This document shows positions 37,855 through 52,406 of a stretch of 64,000 nucleotides of DNA, piece after piece. Position 1 is the first letter of the stretch, and the number at the start of each line of letters is the position of its first letter. A program made the translations under genes and the position numbers. The notes below the pieces were generated by a model, which was not told the origin of the DNA, ran no database searches, and saw only the letters and a list, made by a program, of their open reading frames with translations. Source of the DNA: Candidatus Magasanikiibacteriota bacterium (GTDB lineage: Bacteria; Patescibacteriota; Patescibacteriia; Magasanikbacterales; UBA922); the NCBI GenBank assembly GCA_016207245.1, contig JACQQA010000012.1, forward strand, positions 5,722 to 69,721, written 5' to 3'.

Positions 37855-39360
37855 ATGCTGGAGCAAGAGGAAATCATCGGTAAAAACCCCACCATTGGGT
37901 CTTTGCTGAAAAAAGTTAAAACATACGATGCCAAAGCTGATACTGATCTTATTCGGCTTGCTTATGATTTCGCGGAAAAAGCGCATAGCGGCCAAACCAG
38001 AAAATCAGGCGAACCATACATTATTCATCCTTTGGCAACCGCTCACATTTTGGCCAACATGAGAATAGACCCGGTGATTGTTATCGCGGCGCTCCTGCAC
38101 GATGTGCCCGAAGACACCAAAGTAACCTTGGAAGAACTGGAAAAAAATTTCGGCAGCGAAGTCGCTTCAATGGTCAGAGGCATTACGAAATTGGGAAAAT
38201 TAAAATACCGCGGCGTTGAACGATATATTGAAAACCTGCGCAAAATGTTTATTTCCATGGCTGAAGACGTGCGCGTGATGATTATCAAATTCGCGGACAG
38301 AATCCACAATCTCACCACGCTTGACGCCCTTCCAGCGCCGAAACAATATCGCATCGCTTTGGAAAGTTTGGAAATCTACGCGCCGATCGCCGGACGGCTG
38401 GGTATGGATGAAATCAAAGGCTGGCTGGAAGATTTGTCTTTTAAATATGTTTATCCGAAAGAATACGCGCACATCAAACAAATCCGCGATGAACGGATGC
38501 GCGGAAAAGAAAAATTTTTGCAAGACGCGCAGGACCGCGCCTGGGATGAATTAAAAACCGCCGGCATCAAAACCATAGACCTCTACGGACGTAACAAACG
38601 GCTCTATAGTTTATACCAAAAACTACAGCGTAAAGGCAATGAAATCGCCAAAGTCCATGACATCGTCGCTCTGCGCATTATTGTCCCGACTTTAGCGGAT
38701 TGTTACGCGGCTTTGGGGATTTTGCATAAAATCTGGCGGCCAATGCCTGGCCGAATTAAAGATTATATCGCTCAGCCAAAACCAAACGGCTACCAATCTC
38801 TCCATACCACTGTATTTACGGAAACGGGGGAAATGGTTGAGTTTCAAATTAGAACTCTGGAAATGCACGAGGAGGCGGAGTTCGGCGTCGCGGCGCATTG
38901 GCATTATGATGAACGCGGGCACAAACGGCCGGCGAAAGAAATCAGCTGGGTGAAAGAACTGGCGGAAATACAAAAAGACGTATTGAGCCGACTTTCTGAT
39001 TTAGATGAAATAAAGGTTGATTTTTTGAAATCTCGCATCTTCGTTTTCACTCCTAAAGGCGACGTGATTGATCTGCCGGAAGGCGCCACACCGATTGATT
39101 TCGCCTATCACATCCACACCGCGATCGGCAACAAGTGCAACGGCTCTATAGTTAACGAACAAATGACAAGTTTGGATACCGCTTTAAAAAATGGCGATGT
39201 GGTGGAAATTATTACTGACAAAAATCGCAAAGGTCCGAACCGCGATTGGTTAAAATTCACCAAAACCCATACCGCCAGAATGAATATAAAAAATGCCCTT
39301 CGCTTGCAGGAAAAGAGCTTTATCACCGGATGGATCAAGCAGGTGGTAGGGAAGAAATAG
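37855..39360 (+). CDS. RelA/SpoT family (p)ppGpp synthetase/hydrolase (HD+SYNTH+TGS, no ACT)
   Basis: LLHDVPED, PKPNGYQSLHT, EFQIRT, DFAYHIHT. Confidence 0.93.
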   Translation: MLEQEEIIGKNPTIGSLLKKVKTYDAKADTDLIRLAYDFAEKAHSGQTRKSGEPYIIHPLATAHILANMRIDPVIVIAALLHDVPEDTKVTLEELEKNFGSEVASMVRGITKLGKLKYRGVERYIENLRKMFISMAEDVRVMIIKFADRIHNLTTLDALPAPKQYRIALESLEIYAPIAGRLGMDEIKGWLEDLSFKYVYPKEYAHIKQIRDERMRGKEKFLQDAQDRAWDELKTAGIKTIDLYGRNKRLYSLYQKLQRKGNEIAKVHDIVALRIIVPTLADCYAALGILHKIWRPMPGRIKDYIAQPKPNGYQSLHTTVFTETGEMVEFQIRTLEMHEEAEFGVAAHWHYDERGHKRPAKEISWVKELAEIQKDVLSRLSDLDEIKVDFLKSRIFVFTPKGDVIDLPEGATPIDFAYHIHTAIGNKCNGSIVNEQMTSLDTALKNGDVVEIITDKNRKGPNRDWLKFTKTHTARMNIKNALRLQEKSFITGWIKQVVGKK

Positions 39361-43743: not shown

Positions 43744-45108
43744 TCAATCCTTTTTTTGTTTATATTCCGGCGGAGAAATCTGCAAATCAATCCGGTTTAA
43801 GTCGCGCGGGAACAGCGTGGCGTATTTGATATTATCAATATCCAGCAGTTTGGCGGTCATGCGCTCCAAACCGATTGCCAGCCCGCCTTCCGGAGGCATG
43901 CCATATTTAAACGCCTCCAAATAAAACTCAAATTTTTCCGGCTTTAAGCCCCACTTTTTAATATTGGCAACCAACTGATCATAATCATTAATACGCTGAC
44001 CGCCGGTGGTCACCTCTACCCCGCGGAAAAGCAGATCAAAACTCTTGGTAAATTCCGGATCGGTTTCATCAGGATAAGTATACATTGGACGTTTGACGGT
44101 TGGATAATGCGTTACAAAAACAAAATCCGACTGAAATTTTTTCTTTGCATACTCACAGATCCATTTTTCTTCATTCGGTTCTAAATCAGGCTCTTTGGTG
44201 TGGTCAATTTTTGTTTCTTGTTTAATTATTTCCTGCGCCTCGCGTAATTTGAAAACCGGTATTTTTTCCGGCAATTCCGGACGAATATAATTTAATAATT
44301 TTAATTCCCGCGCGACTGTTTTATCCAGATGATCCAACAAAAAGCGCAAAAATTTTGTTTCCAATTCCATGACATCGGTATGGTCTTTTATCATGCCAAA
44401 TTCCAAATCCAAACTGGTATATTCATTTATATGACGCGTAGTGGCATGCTCCTCGGCGCGGTAAACATTGCCGACCGTGAACACGCGCTCAAACGCGCCA
44501 ACCATTATTTGCTTATAAAACTGCGGACTTTGCGCCAAATATGCTTTGGTATCAAAATATTTAATTTCAAAAACATTGGAGCCACCCTCGGTGGAATCAC
44601 CAACGATTTTTGGACACTGAAATTCAGTAAAACTTTCACCGCGCAAAAATGCCCGAAACGCTTCCACGATTTCGCTCTGCACCTTAAACACTGCACGCCA
44701 CTTTTCAGAGCGCAATGTGAGCGGTAAATTATCCAAATGCACGTCTAAACCGATTTTCTCGTCCTCTAAATCCAACGGCAGTGGCTCGGCTTTTGCCAAC
44801 ACTTTAAATCCTTTTGCCAACACCTCAATTTCGCCGGTGGCCAAATTCGGATTAATATTTTTTACCCCGCGTTTATTTACCAGACCCTTGATTTCAACTA
44901 CATACTCGCTATGAACGTCTTTAAGTAAATCATAATCCACGCCCAAATCATTTGGCACGCAAACTACCTGGACTAAACCGGCGCGGTCGCGCACATCCAA
45001 AAACACAATTTTGCCCAAATTGCGTCTAGTCTGCACCCAGCCGGCGATAGTTACTTCTTGGCCGACATGATTGACATTAAGTTCTCCGCAAGTGTTTGTA
45101 CGATTCAT
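43744..45108 (-). CDS. aspS: Aspartate-tRNA ligase, short archaeal-type (probably non-discriminating)
   Basis: OB fold, LAQSPQFYKQ, YRAE, GLAIGLER; no GAD domain. Confidence 0.9.
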   Translation of the reverse strand: MNRTNTCGELNVNHVGQEVTIAGWVQTRRNLGKIVFLDVRDRAGLVQVVCVPNDLGVDYDLLKDVHSEYVVEIKGLVNKRGVKNINPNLATGEIEVLAKGFKVLAKAEPLPLDLEDEKIGLDVHLDNLPLTLRSEKWRAVFKVQSEIVEAFRAFLRGESFTEFQCPKIVGDSTEGGSNVFEIKYFDTKAYLAQSPQFYKQIMVGAFERVFTVGNVYRAEEHATTRHINEYTSLDLEFGMIKDHTDVMELETKFLRFLLDHLDKTVARELKLLNYIRPELPEKIPVFKLREAQEIIKQETKIDHTKEPDLEPNEEKWICEYAKKKFQSDFVFVTHYPTVKRPMYTYPDETDPEFTKSFDLLFRGVEVTTGGQRINDYDQLVANIKKWGLKPEKFEFYLEAFKYGMPPEGGLAIGLERMTAKLLDIDNIKYATLFPRDLNRIDLQISPPEYKQKKD

Positions 45109-48132: not shown

Positions 48133-49452
48133 TCATGGTCTCAAACGATTAATCGTCCGCGGAAAGGGAACACACTCTCTGATGTGCTCGGCGCCGGAAA
48201 TCCAACGCACGACGCGCTCCACGCCAATACCAAAGCCGGAATGCGGCACCGAACCATATTTGCGCAAGTCTAAGTACCATTCATAATCTTTCTCGCTCAA
48301 ACCTTCGTGACCGATTCTCTCTATCAACAAATCATAATCATCCTCGCGCTGGGACCCGCCGATTAGCTCACCCGCGCCCTCAATCCCGATTAAATCATCA
48401 TTCAAAACCAAATCTGAATTTCCCGGATCTATTTTCATATAAAACGGCTTAATATTTTTAGGCCATTTTTCTATAAACACCGGCACGTCAGAATCTTTTG
48501 TTAAAAGCCCCTCGTCATCATTACCCAAATCCTCGCCATGTTTTATATCACTGCCTAATTTATTTAACTTTTTAATCGCCTCATCATAAGTATAACGAAC
48601 AAAAGGTTTATCAACCATCACCCTCAAAGCAGTCACATCGCGTTCCAAAATTTTAAATTCTTGTTGGCAATCTTCCAAACATTTTTTTACTATCGCCTTA
48701 ACTAAATTTTCTTGAATTTTCAAGTTTTCGTCATGTTCCACAAACGCGGCTTCAGCATCCATCATCCAAAACTCGGTCAAATGGCGTTTAGTCGCTGATT
48801 TTTCCGCGCGAAAAACCGGGCCAAAATCATAACACCGCCCGACTGACGCGATCGCGGCTTCAATATATAACTGGCCGGATTGAGATAAATAAGCTGTGCC
48901 TAAATCAAAATATGGCACGGGGAAAAGCGTGGTCGTGCCTTCGCAGGCATTTGGAGTAAAAATCGGCGAGTCAGTACGGATAAAATTCTCGCTGTGCAGA
49001 TATTTGTTAATCGCGGTCTCCACCGTGTCTCTAATCCGCAAAATCGCCCATTGTTTTTTTGACCGCAACCACAAATGCCGATTATCCATCAAAAATTCCG
49101 GCCCATGGTCTTTTTTGCTTATTGGGTATTCTTGCGCGAGTTGTATAATCTTGAAACTTGCTTGCCCTGAGCTTGCCGAAGGGATAATTTGCAACTCATA
49201 CACCCCTTCCTGCTTCGGATGCTTTGTGACTTTCCCCGTCACTTCAACCGATGACTCCTGCGTCGTCTTATCAATCGCTTCCCAAACTTCCGCCGGTAAA
49301 CCTTCTTTCACTGCCACGGCCTGCGCAAAACCAGAACCATCGCGGATTTCCAAAAACGCAATCTTGCCGGACGAACGTTTGTTGTTCAGCCAGCCTTTAA
49401 TTGTTACCTCCTCACCGACTTCGGTTGATAAATCTTTGATAAATGTTTGCAT
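48133..49452 (-). CDS. asnS: Asparagine-tRNA ligase
   Basis: YLSQSGQLY, FRAEKS..RHLTEFWM, ELIGGSQRE, PHSGFGIG. Confidence 0.96.
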   Translation of the reverse strand: MQTFIKDLSTEVGEEVTIKGWLNNKRSSGKIAFLEIRDGSGFAQAVAVKEGLPAEVWEAIDKTTQESSVEVTGKVTKHPKQEGVYELQIIPSASSGQASFKIIQLAQEYPISKKDHGPEFLMDNRHLWLRSKKQWAILRIRDTVETAINKYLHSENFIRTDSPIFTPNACEGTTTLFPVPYFDLGTAYLSQSGQLYIEAAIASVGRCYDFGPVFRAEKSATKRHLTEFWMMDAEAAFVEHDENLKIQENLVKAIVKKCLEDCQQEFKILERDVTALRVMVDKPFVRYTYDEAIKKLNKLGSDIKHGEDLGNDDEGLLTKDSDVPVFIEKWPKNIKPFYMKIDPGNSDLVLNDDLIGIEGAGELIGGSQREDDYDLLIERIGHEGLSEKDYEWYLDLRKYGSVPHSGFGIGVERVVRWISGAEHIRECVPFPRTINRLRP

Positions 49453-50221: not shown

Positions 50222-50683
50222 TTATTTCAAGATAATCCCCTTTCGCAATTCTCTCCGAGATTCCCGACATTTCGGCACGGCCACCGCCAACAAATTCCAA
50301 AAATCGCGCGAGTGGTTGAATTCCCGCAAATGGCACAATTCATGCGCGATAATATACTCGGCTAATCTTTCCGGTAAAAAAATAATTTTATAATTAAAAT
50401 TCAGATTCCCCTTTTTGGAACAACTGCCCCAACGGGTCTTTTGATTCCTGATTGATATTTTTTTAAAAGAAAAATTATAAATTTTATTCATATTTTCTAC
50501 TTTCTTAAGAACAAACTCGCGCGCTTGCTCGCGGCGTTTTTTATACTCACGCTTGCCGCCGCCAATCCGCACGATTTTACCCATCACCCGCGCGTCGCAA
50601 TGCACCGCCACCCGCAACCGCTGAGCGCGGAGGCTTTTTTTAATTTGATACTCAATTTCGCGATTGTTTAGAAGCGTTTTCAT
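50222..50683 (-). CDS. YgjP/DUF45-like zinc metallopeptidase-family protein (short)
   Basis: KTRWGSCS, HELCH..NHS. Confidence 0.85.
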   Translation of the reverse strand: MKTLLNNREIEYQIKKSLRAQRLRVAVHCDARVMGKIVRIGGGKREYKKRREQAREFVLKKVENMNKIYNFSFKKISIRNQKTRWGSCSKKGNLNFNYKIIFLPERLAEYIIAHELCHLREFNHSRDFWNLLAVAVPKCRESRRELRKGIILK

Positions 50684-50705
50684 TTGATAATTATAACATA
50701 CAATT

Positions 50706-50780
50706 TGGCTCCCGGGGCTGGATTCGGACCAGCGATATCCACGTTAACAGCGTGGCGTTGTACCACTCAACTACCCGGGA
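50706..50780 (-). tRNA. tRNA-Asn (GTT)
   Basis: CCACG-CTGTTAA-CGTGG; CCA encoded; T-loop reads TCCGAAT. Confidence 0.9.
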
Positions 50781-50787
50781 TTAATTT

Positions 50788-50812
50788 AAACACCCACCTA
50801 TTCGGCGGGTGT
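50788..50812 (-). terminator. Attenuator terminator hairpin (3:4)
   Basis: ACACCCGCC-GAATA-GGTGGGTGT-TT; short U-tract. Confidence 0.6.
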
Positions 50813-50835
50813 AATCGGTTTTTCAATATGGAAAG

Positions 50836-50892
50836 CTACACTCCGCCGGCGGGTGAATTATTGTTATTATTATTTAATCGCGTAGTTTTCAT
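50836..50892 (-). CDS. Putative Asn-sensing leader peptide MKTTRLNNNNNNSPAGGV
   Basis: ATG AAA ACT ACG CGA TTA AAT AAT AAT AAC AAT AAT TCA CCC GCC GGC GGA GTG TAG, just downstream of a consensus promoter. Confidence 0.75.
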   Translation of the reverse strand: MKTTRLNNNNNNSPAGGV

Positions 50893-50900
50893 ATGGACAT

Positions 50901-50929
50901 AGTATAGCACAGAAAGAGAGCTTTGTCAA
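50901..50929 (-). promoter_or_regulatory. Sigma70 promoter for leader and tRNA-Asn
   Basis: TTGACA-N17-TATACT with extended TG. Confidence 0.8.
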
Positions 50930-50993
50930 ACTTTACCTTGACACCCGCCTCCCAAACCCATATAATTCTAATGTTAATTCTTAACCAACTTCT

Positions 50994-52406
50994 ATGTCAT
51001 TAATCAAAGACTCGGCGCGTAACTCGGTAATTTTACGGTTAATTTTAATTGGTGTGCTGTCGCTTTTACTCCTAATTCCTACCGGCATGATCAGCTCTAT
51101 AGTTTATGAGCGGGAATCTCGAAGCCAGGAAGCGATTAATGAGGTGAGTTCAAAATGGAGCAACGAACAAACTGTCGCCGGCCCGATTTTAACTATTCCC
51201 TACAAAAAGTATCTTAAAGACAAAGATAACCCAACCAAAGTAATTGAAACTGTTTCTTACGCGCATTTTTTGCCGGAACGTTTGGACATCAGCGGAAACA
51301 TAGAACCGAAAATGCTCAATCGCGGAATGTATGATGTCGTGGTATATAATTCCAAACTTGATTTAAGCGGCGGATTCAAAGCGCCGGATTGGGACAAATT
51401 GAATATCAACCCGACTGACACGTTTTTGGATCAAGCCACCGTATCTGTTAATATTCCGGACATGCGCGGAATAAAAGAAAAAATCGCCTTTGCCTGGAAT
51501 GGCGTGGCGATTAATTTAGAACCGGGAGTTCAGGGAGATATCGCCAAGTATTTAGATTTGACCGTGCCGATTCAATATAACGACACCGAACGATTCGACG
51601 AAGCGATGCCGACAAAAATAATGCCGCCGGACGCTGTTTCCAGGGGCGGATCCGGAGTCAGCGCCAAAGTTCCGGTTGGCAGTGATGGCGCGTATAATTT
51701 CAAATTAGTATTGGATCTAAACGGCAGCCAAAGATTAAATTTCCTGCCATTAGGCAGTGAGACTAATGTGGAAGTAAAATCAAGCTGGAATAATCCGAGT
51801 TTTGATGGAACATTTTTACCGGATGAACGTAATGTTACTAGCTCCGGCTTTACCGCGAAATGGAAAGTCCTGCAATTCAACCGAAATTATCCGCAAAGTT
51901 TCTCGGAATTATCCAACTCCAATTTAATTGGCTCGGCATTTGGCGTAAAACTGATGGTGCCGGTGGATCAATATCAAAAAACCTCCCGCGCGGTAAAATA
52001 CGCTATTTTGACCATCGCGCTGACTTTCCTGATATTTTTCTTTGTGGAAATATTCAACCGCACCCGCATTCATCCTTTCCAATATATTTTGGTTGGTCTG
52101 GCGCTGGTGCTGTTTTTCACTCTCCTGCTTTCCATTTCCGAACATTTGGGATTCAACTACGCTTATCTGACTTCCGCCGCGTCAATTTTGCTGATGACAT
52201 CTCTCTATACAAAAACCGTATTCAAAAACACCCGCGCGACAGTAATTTTATCTCTAATTCTTGTCGCTATTTACACCTTTATCTACACCATTCTGCAACT
52301 GCAAGATTACGCGCTCTTAATCGGCAGTATCGGCCTATTCTTCATCTTGGCCGCGGTGATGTTCATCTCGCGGAAGATTAATTGGTACGAAGTGGCAAAT
52401 CAGTAG
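50994..52406 (+). CDS. creD: Inner membrane protein CreD
   Basis: PSFDGTFLP, YQKTSRAVKY, IHPFQYILVG, LLLSISEH. Confidence 0.93.
   Translation: MSLIKDSARNSVILRLILIGVLSLLLLIPTGMISSIVYERESRSQEAINEVSSKWSNEQTVAGPILTIPYKKYLKDKDNPTKVIETVSYAHFLPERLDISGNIEPKMLNRGMYDVVVYNSKLDLSGGFKAPDWDKLNINPTDTFLDQATVSVNIPDMRGIKEKIAFAWNGVAINLEPGVQGDIAKYLDLTVPIQYNDTERFDEAMPTKIMPPDAVSRGGSGVSAKVPVGSDGAYNFKLVLDLNGSQRLNFLPLGSETNVEVKSSWNNPSFDGTFLPDERNVTSSGFTAKWKVLQFNRNYPQSFSELSNSNLIGSAFGVKLMVPVDQYQKTSRAVKYAILTIALTFLIFFFVEIFNRTRIHPFQYILVGLALVLFFTLLLSISEHLGFNYAYLTSAASILLMTSLYTKTVFKNTRATVILSLILVAIYTFIYTILQLQDYALLIGSIGLFFILAAVMFISRKINWYEVANQ

Follow-up and report, generated by a model that had tools for sequence, protein, structure and literature searches.

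In the attenuators of E. coli, a leader ORF precedes two mutually exclusive hairpins, 2:3 and 3:4, the stop codon of the ORF overlaps or adjoins segment 2, and the terminator lies before the regulated gene. The pheM-pheST system of the same organism extends leader-peptide control to a synthetase, which is regulated by the charged level of its own tRNA. T-boxes have been mentioned before tRNA genes in some Firmicutes, and the Asn T-box of Clostridium acetobutylicum reportedly controls tRNA-dependent amidation. Promoter strength, growth rate and the stringent response are the factors usually named as determining the expression of bacterial tRNA genes. According to the available portion of an attenuator survey, histidine leaders are found before hisS paralogs in bacilli, and tRNA is mentioned there five times, in no case as the regulated target (PMC2965389).

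Here we describe a locus in a 64,000-nt stretch of DNA (referred to as the window) from Candidatus Magasanikiibacteriota (GCA_016207245.1, contig JACQQA010000012.1; a 687-kb assembly that is 84%-complete), for which a first-pass annotation had proposed the layout of the trp and his attenuators in front of a tRNA-Asn gene. That layout is supported by a conserved run of Asn codons, a leaderless start in frame with it, exclusive pairings and a switch geometry that works in the right direction. Taking together the anatomy of the locus, its conservation, the reading frame, the exclusive pairings found in silico and the link to one form of the tRNA, we conclude that the element is very probably a ribosome-mediated transcription attenuator on a leaderless transcript, with tRNA-Asn as the regulated product.

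Organization of the tRNA-Asn leader

The promoter, the Asn-rich ORF, the hairpin and tRNA-Asn(GTT) follow one another on the minus strand as first annotated, with every part found at its expected place (Table 1). The pairing between the end of the leader ORF (50848-50836) and the 5´ arm of the terminator (50814-50803) extends over 12 bp around one bulged A. The earlier claim that this pairing and the terminator exclude each other was confirmed by folding: the whole antiterminator hairpin has a predicted energy of -18.4 kcal/mol (z about -4.3, with 0/200 shuffles as good) vs -16.9 kcal/mol for the terminator, and the two structures have one arm in common. The annotation had also cautioned that the U-tract is weak, and rightly so, as the hairpin is absent from the list given by our terminator scan; the terminators of the two same-genus relatives have longer U runs.

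Table 1. Features of the tRNA-Asn locus and of downstream genes in the window
Feature	Position	Strand	Remarks
Sigma-70-type promoter, TTGACA-17-TATACT with TG extension	50901..50929	-	11/12 consensus matches
Promoter boxes	TTGACA 50929-50924; TATACT 50906-50901	-	17 nt spacer
Leaderless leader ORF, MKTTRLNNNNNNSPAGGV	50836..50892	-	18 codons; ATG 8 nt past -10 box
Sensor, six consecutive Asn codons	50857..50874	-	5 AAT, 1 AAC
Segment 1, near-copy of terminator 5´ arm	50848..50856	-	pairs with terminator 3´ arm in the ribosome-free full-length fold; putative role
Segment 2, antiterminator 5´ strand	50836..50848	-	leader stop codon at its end
Segment 3, antiterminator 3´ strand and terminator 5´ arm	50803..50814	-	common to both structures
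Predicted intrinsic terminator (3:4)	50783..50812	-	stem 50812-50790, 9 bp including one G-U; 5-nt loop; weak tail TTTAAATT
tRNA-Asn(GTT), U11-A24 form	50706..50780	-	U1-A72, G26, A44-U45
Putative extended -10 (TG-n-TATAAT)	50690..50698	-	just past tRNA, 6 nt before ATG of next ORF
Next ORF after tRNA-Asn	50683-50222	-	
asnS, asparagine-tRNA ligase	48133..49452	-	1.25 kb downstream; over cut-off for TIGR00457 and PRK03932
Short AspRS	43744..45108	-	over cut-off for PRK05159 and TIGR00458; only AspRS found in genome

Runs of five or more AAY codons occur only twice in the whole 687-kb genome, both strands counted, and the leader is the sole case with more than four identical residues within seven codons among the short promoter-proximal ORFs listed. 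The rarity of such runs and the uniqueness of this residue cluster argue that the window element did not arise by chance. No other cognate leader was found among the short promoter-proximal ORFs of the window genome, and none was evident before the other tRNAs among those listed. When 50400-51200 was searched against Rfam, the tRNA alone reached its gathering score and no cis-regulatory family did; the T-box model, with its stem I specifier loop and antiterminator bulge, stayed under threshold here. No tRNA-Asn other than that of the window was found in this 84%-complete genome. On the other strand, back to back with the leader promoter and with 8 nt between the two -35 boxes, lies a perfect TTGACA-17-TATAAT promoter (50938-50966, plus strand) driving creD (50994-52406).

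The Asn codons lie in frame with a leaderless start

The leader was characterized across 90 non-redundant elements (of 114), defined by an identity under 75% over the stretch from the Asn run to the terminator. In these elements the leader ORF is 10-29 codons long. A promoter-like site lies 3-12 nt before the start codon in 82/90, the ATG is found 6-9 nt past the -10 box in 68 of these 82, and an SD-like word precedes the ORF in 5/90. Judged from sequence, this leaderless geometry would supply the translation start that an attenuator needs, and the ORF is presumably translated. The ATG chosen on the basis of the promoter alone was in frame with the AAY run in 83/83 cases, as was the nearest ATG in 92/94. 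Inside the runs we counted 434 AAT and 147 AAC codons together with one AAG and no AAA, a mixture that points to selection on the amino acid rather than for an AT repeat. The share of Asn among leader residues is 42% in the relatives vs 4.4% in the long ORFs of the window genome.

The longest leaders (L119 and L308) contain 18 consecutive Asn codons. Leaderless starts also look common elsewhere in the window genome: 80 long ORFs have a promoter-like site 4-12 nt upstream, and in 45 of these the start lies 7-9 nt past the -10 box. ARAGORN found no tmRNA in the window assembly.

Folding predicts a switch between antiterminator and terminator

To represent the ribosome, 12 nt past the start of the A-site were masked, and sequestration of the terminator 5´ arm was scored at the point where the 3´ arm has yet to be transcribed. 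The arm was sequestered in 87/90 elements when the ribosome occupied the middle Asn codon, compared with 3/90 when it was placed at the stop codon; for the window itself the values were 1.0 and 0.08, respectively. The corresponding counts were 86 vs 10 with a 9-nt cover and 86 vs 3 with a 15-nt cover. As controls, shuffled upstream parts still sequestered the arm in 41% and partner-swapped parts in 81%, the high rate of the latter being due to a CCCGC/GCGGG core common to many loci.

Segment 2:3 duplexes averaged -12.7 kcal/mol when formed with the locus's own partner vs -8.3 kcal/mol with partners from other loci. The own pairing was better than the swapped mean in 77/90 and beat shuffles at p<=0.05 in 64/90, while the own partner ranked first in 17/90 and in the top 5% in 39/90. 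Given these few top ranks and the shared core, locus-specific covariation is real but modest. The annotation had suggested looking for covarying 2:3 and 3:4 stems, and the alternative pairing is retained with varying sequence: in 89/90 elements, at least four of the last seven arm bases pair with segment 2 as well as with segment 4. The arms comprise 63 different sequences, and G-C-G, C-G-C, A-U-A and U-A-U triples are all used.

The same folds give some indication of how the switch might behave at other ribosome positions. With the ribosome on the last Asn codon, the terminator is often no longer prevented at equilibrium (57/90; window 1.0). The 1:2 protector or pause hairpin is weak, with a median of -4.4 kcal/mol and values of -5 or lower in 39/90. 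In ribosome-free RNA, sequestration of the 5´ arm precedes synthesis of the 3´ arm in 72/90, which suggests that the default without a ribosome may be read-through (on); at equilibrium the terminator is formed in 51/90. In favor of the attenuator reading, NusG is present, and no second promoter-like site was found within 75 nt of the tRNA in 50/51 leader loci.

The element is concentrated in the order and class of the window

Sixty relatives were first searched at the DNA level with a sequence that contained the leader, and this gave 30 loci (L001-L030), 28 of which have a tRNA-Asn. A promoter, an Asn-rich micro-ORF and a GC hairpin with a U tail were found in 25 of the 28; in the other three the promoter lies directly before the tRNA-Asn. 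A pattern scan of the species collection yielded at least 119 stretches, and 89 of those listed have both leader and terminator, although the genomes are related and such counts overstate independence. The 30 listed stretches that we rejected comprise 19 without tRNA-Asn, eight without a leader, two with an Asn ORF lacking promoter or terminator, and one that was masked. Record titles of the positives include Magasanikbacteria, Komeilibacteria, Kuenenbacteria, Uhrbacteria, Kerfeldbacteria, Parcubacteria, Saccharibacteria and Dojkabacteria. Many are titled 'uncultured Gammaproteobacteria' and one 'Candidatus Udaeobacter', but these are record titles only and are not counted as spread beyond Patescibacteria. 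Negatives among the matches listed include records titled Gilliamella, Edaphocola, Proteus, Clostridium, Pontibacillus and Bacilli.

Outside the class of the window, an even sample of 370 genomes of the phylum gave five pattern matches, of which one was real (L243), a lower bound since the pattern missed two known positives (G145 and G156). With 1/370 outside the class, the element appears concentrated in the order and class of the window. A strict pattern run on viral contigs returned 33 stretches, three with tRNA-Asn and none with a leader.

Leaders accompany the U11-A24 form of tRNA-Asn

A pattern search of 150 class genomes distinguished two forms of tRNA-Asn(GTT), the U11-A24 form seen in the window and a canonical C11-G24 form. 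We compiled 152 copies from the order and the class (L001-030, L150-199 and L258-337) and looked upstream for at least three AAY codons in a row. The run was present at 94/108 U11 copies, in agreement with the cognate-codon leader that had been anticipated for relatives, vs 1/44 C11 copies; 14/108 U11 copies have no run, and the sole C11 exception (L025) otherwise resembles the U11 form. While L001-030 came from the query containing the leader, the remaining copies were picked by tRNA sequence alone, and among these the leader accompanies 19/20 (class) and 51/59 (order) U11 copies vs 0/23 and 0/21 C11 copies.

For the order, we searched 150 genomes plus that of the window. A tRNA-Asn match was obtained in 124, which we tallied by eye as 87 with U11 only, 21 with both forms and 16 with C11 only. 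In the 21 genomes with both, the leader is found on 20 U11 copies and on no C11 copy. Many C11 copies have a promoter of their own about 40-60 nt upstream. Both forms are present in one genome of the same genus as the window (G002), and the window's 84%-complete genome may therefore miss the canonical copy only through assembly; a single-contig genome (G454) has the leader-controlled copy alone. In the collection scan, a C11 tRNA follows the element in four records titled Saccharibacteria or Dojkabacteria, so that the link between leader and U11 is not absolute outside the class of the window. The proposal that a tRNA is controlled through its own decoding is supported as far as the attenuator layout is concerned, with Asn-tRNA as the presumed signal, but the leader is tied to the U11-A24 form, often beside a canonical copy with its own promoter, and would not act only as a simple self-homeostat.

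Several further features of these tRNA loci were noted. One locus (L157, in G079:C2) combines a U11 tRNA-Asn with a promoter, a leaderless ORF of 16 codons, an antiterminator and a terminator, yet the ORF contains a single Asn codon; its leader may represent a sensor that has decayed or been re-targeted. A U11 tRNA-Asn gene often follows an incomplete copy of its own 5´ half (L151, L155, L156, L164, L167 and others, namely L016, L021, L029, L287, L289, L327, L328 and L332), and in several of these loci the intact tRNA lies within an older copy that is split, and has short inverted repeats on both sides. In the window's genome, outside the window (G000:C9:37866-38081, plus strand), a promoter is followed by a leader of about 90 nt, a hairpin with a T run, a second promoter-like site and an atypical tRNA-Ile(GAT). 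The 5´ part of this leader (37901-37913) is exactly complementary to 13 nt of the D-arm and anticodon stem of the tRNA, a helix of about 19 bp is predicted when the two are folded jointly, and this is a possible antisense or anti-folding leader for a tRNA.

Charging route of the U11 form

What the regulated tRNA serves is a separate matter. One idea, which we put forward tentatively and consider rather less likely than its alternatives combined, is that the U11 tRNA is made upon Asn shortage as a scaffold for AspRS and GatCAB, by which Asp-tRNA-Asn is turned into Asn-tRNA-Asn, so that the tRNA would itself be the 'biosynthetic gene' of the attenuator. In line with this, gatB was over its cut-off in 149/151 class genomes. 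asnS accompanies U11 copies in 24/26 genomes vs 56/124 for the rest (relatives that are not independent), and since the U11 form thus occurs mostly where asnS is present, a back-up to the direct route would make sense there; overall, asnS was over cut-off in 81/151 class genomes and 142/151 order genomes. An AsnB-type synthetase was not found in four of five genomes tested, that of the window among them.

The window genome itself has asnS, gatB and a single short AspRS, for which the matching models give the label Asp-tRNA(Asn) ligase. This is the aspS that was first annotated as ND-type. It does pass the NCBIfam cut-offs, but 'non-discriminating' is the label of the model, and we take its anticodon domain to look more discriminating than that label says. 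Overall the protein scores as a member of the archaeal-type non-discriminating family, but the bacterial-type model can be aligned with its N-terminal 274 residues as well; in the close family members G454 and G014, a full bacterial-type AspRS takes its place. An AspRS-like match on contig C8 is, by its motif, presumably EpmA and not an Asn synthetase.

Features of the tRNA can also be read in favor of the indirect route. The window tRNA keeps U1-A72, given as the GatCAB determinant in the available portion of one source (PMC1635274). Pair 11-24 is an Asp-family position that is often U11-A24, according to the portion available of another (PMC9976931), and the tRNA-Asp of the window genome has U11. 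Against this, E. coli asnT has the same U11-A24, G26, A44-U45 pattern, yet E. coli is not among the gatB-positive controls (a BLAST search of the window tRNA against E. coli genomes returned no tRNA-Asn match). In addition, genomes that lack asnS must use canonical C11 copies for the indirect route, linkage of the tRNA is with asnS and not with aspS or the gat genes, and the U11 copy cannot be a pure back-up in the 87/124 order genomes where it alone was found. Plain dosage control or a module matched to AsnRS fit equally with the back-up route. Should the latter be true, there would be two functionally different forms of tRNA-Asn, and a host-dependent cell would change its charging route via the tRNA, not via enzymes.

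Alternatives to termination before the tRNA gene

The first-pass annotation had drawn attention to asnS and aspS downstream on the same strand. Their location is correct (Table 1), but neither holds as a general target. It is unlikely, in our view, that the element attenuates asnS in the manner of pheM-pheST, with the tRNA as a passenger in the leader of a tRNA-asnS operon. The start of asnS does lie within about 250 nt of the tRNA in eight loci, some titled Saccharibacteria and Dojkabacteria, and a tRNA-asnS operon may be the ancestral arrangement. Among the order genomes with a U11 copy, however, asnS is within about 300 nt in only 6/108, with seven more (window included) within 7 kb on the same strand as judged by eye, and in most it is on another contig or far off. 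An Asn leader was absent from all 40 asnS genes taken from class genomes with no U11 match (40/56 such genomes); the three loose Asn matches before asnS lacked promoter and terminator. Moreover, a terminator-like hairpin follows within 60 nt of the tRNA in 35/129 leader loci, and in the window the next ORF appears to have its own promoter. The usual distance of asnS and its lack of a leader of its own, the hairpins after the tRNA and the promoter of the next gene together indicate that the tRNA is the common target.

Less probable still is an action of the hairpin on processing or stability of the tRNA precursor (through access of RNase P or RNase E/III) instead of on termination, with the ORF still translated and sensed. 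The hairpin ends less than 20 nt from the 5´ end of the tRNA in 79/90 elements and the tail in the window is weak, but at least five of eight tail nucleotides are U in 83/90 relatives, and the spacing between terminator and tRNA reaches at least 100 nt in some loci with the element retained. Finally, the chance that an AT-rich microsatellite merely happens to lie beside one of the GC palindromes common in this genome is negligible: such palindromes are frequent around tRNAs here and 30 of the at least 119 pattern-scan stretches listed were negative, but the frame test already contradicts this reading, as do the synonymous use of AAT and AAC, the near absence of the run at canonical copies and a geometry maintained over the 90 non-redundant elements.

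Discussion

Control of tRNA-Asn by attenuation would proceed as follows. RNA polymerase starts a leaderless transcript, on which a ribosome would initiate at the 5´ AUG and follow the polymerase. With ample Asn-tRNA-Asn, the ribosome would reach the stop codon and cover segment 2, allowing the 3:4 hairpin to form, and transcription would end about 8 nt before the tRNA. If the Asn codons are read slowly, the ribosome would stay on the run, segment 2 would capture the 5´ arm of the terminator ahead of synthesis of the 3´ arm, and transcription would proceed into the tRNA-Asn gene. Where a canonical C11-G24 copy without a leader is also present, adjustment of the supply would fall to the U11 copy; in genomes with no tRNA-Asn found other than the U11 copy, the loop would set the whole level of tRNA-Asn.

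In all likelihood, then, a cassette of 150 nt lets the speed of Asn-codon decoding gate the transcription of tRNA-Asn. This would be a compact and testable answer to the problem of matching one tRNA with the demand for its own codons. As far as can be read from genomes, the element further suggests that transcription-translation coupling and leaderless initiation both operate in Patescibacteria. The existence of a second tRNA-Asn form under separate control in reduced genomes makes its charging route a concrete biochemical question.

The annotation had named no such case for a tRNA gene, and our search of the literature likewise turned up no leader-peptide attenuator before a tRNA gene, though one could be listed in a supplement or an older review; the available portions of PMC1635274, PMC9976931, PMC4695836, PMC2965389 and PMC4206432 contain none. 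The locus has the one-amino-acid codon cluster, the start signal, the terminator before the gene, the exclusive antiterminator and, in silico, the stall and stop geometry of an attenuator, but where the regulated gene of an attenuator is an enzyme, synthetase or transporter, the first and usually only downstream unit here is tRNA-Asn.

The closest parallels are trpL, hisL, pheL, thrL and leuL of E. coli, which also combine a short ORF rich in codons for one amino acid, a stop codon at segment 2, exclusive 2:3 and 3:4 pairings and a terminator with a U tail. Unlike the amino-acid operon attenuators, the leader described here is on a leaderless transcript, Asn is the amino acid sensed and the regulated gene encodes a tRNA instead of an enzyme or transporter; and unlike trp-type leaders, a strong 1:2 protector is not evident, so that the ribosome-free default may be on and not off. 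As in pheM-pheST, a leader peptide would control a component of the translation apparatus through the charged level of its own tRNA, but in that case the component is the synthetase, whereas here a minority of loci have asnS after the tRNA, and in no case does asnS alone have the leader (0/40). The Asn T-box of C. acetobutylicum resembles the element in tying attenuation to the status of tRNA-Asn, in an organism with both routes to Asn-tRNA; in contrast to it, T-box RNA binds the uncharged tRNA and targets protein genes, and no T-box model scored above threshold at this locus. The element is real and conserved, and what appears new in it is the pairing of a known attenuator mechanism with a tRNA gene as its probable target, confined mainly to one form of tRNA-Asn.
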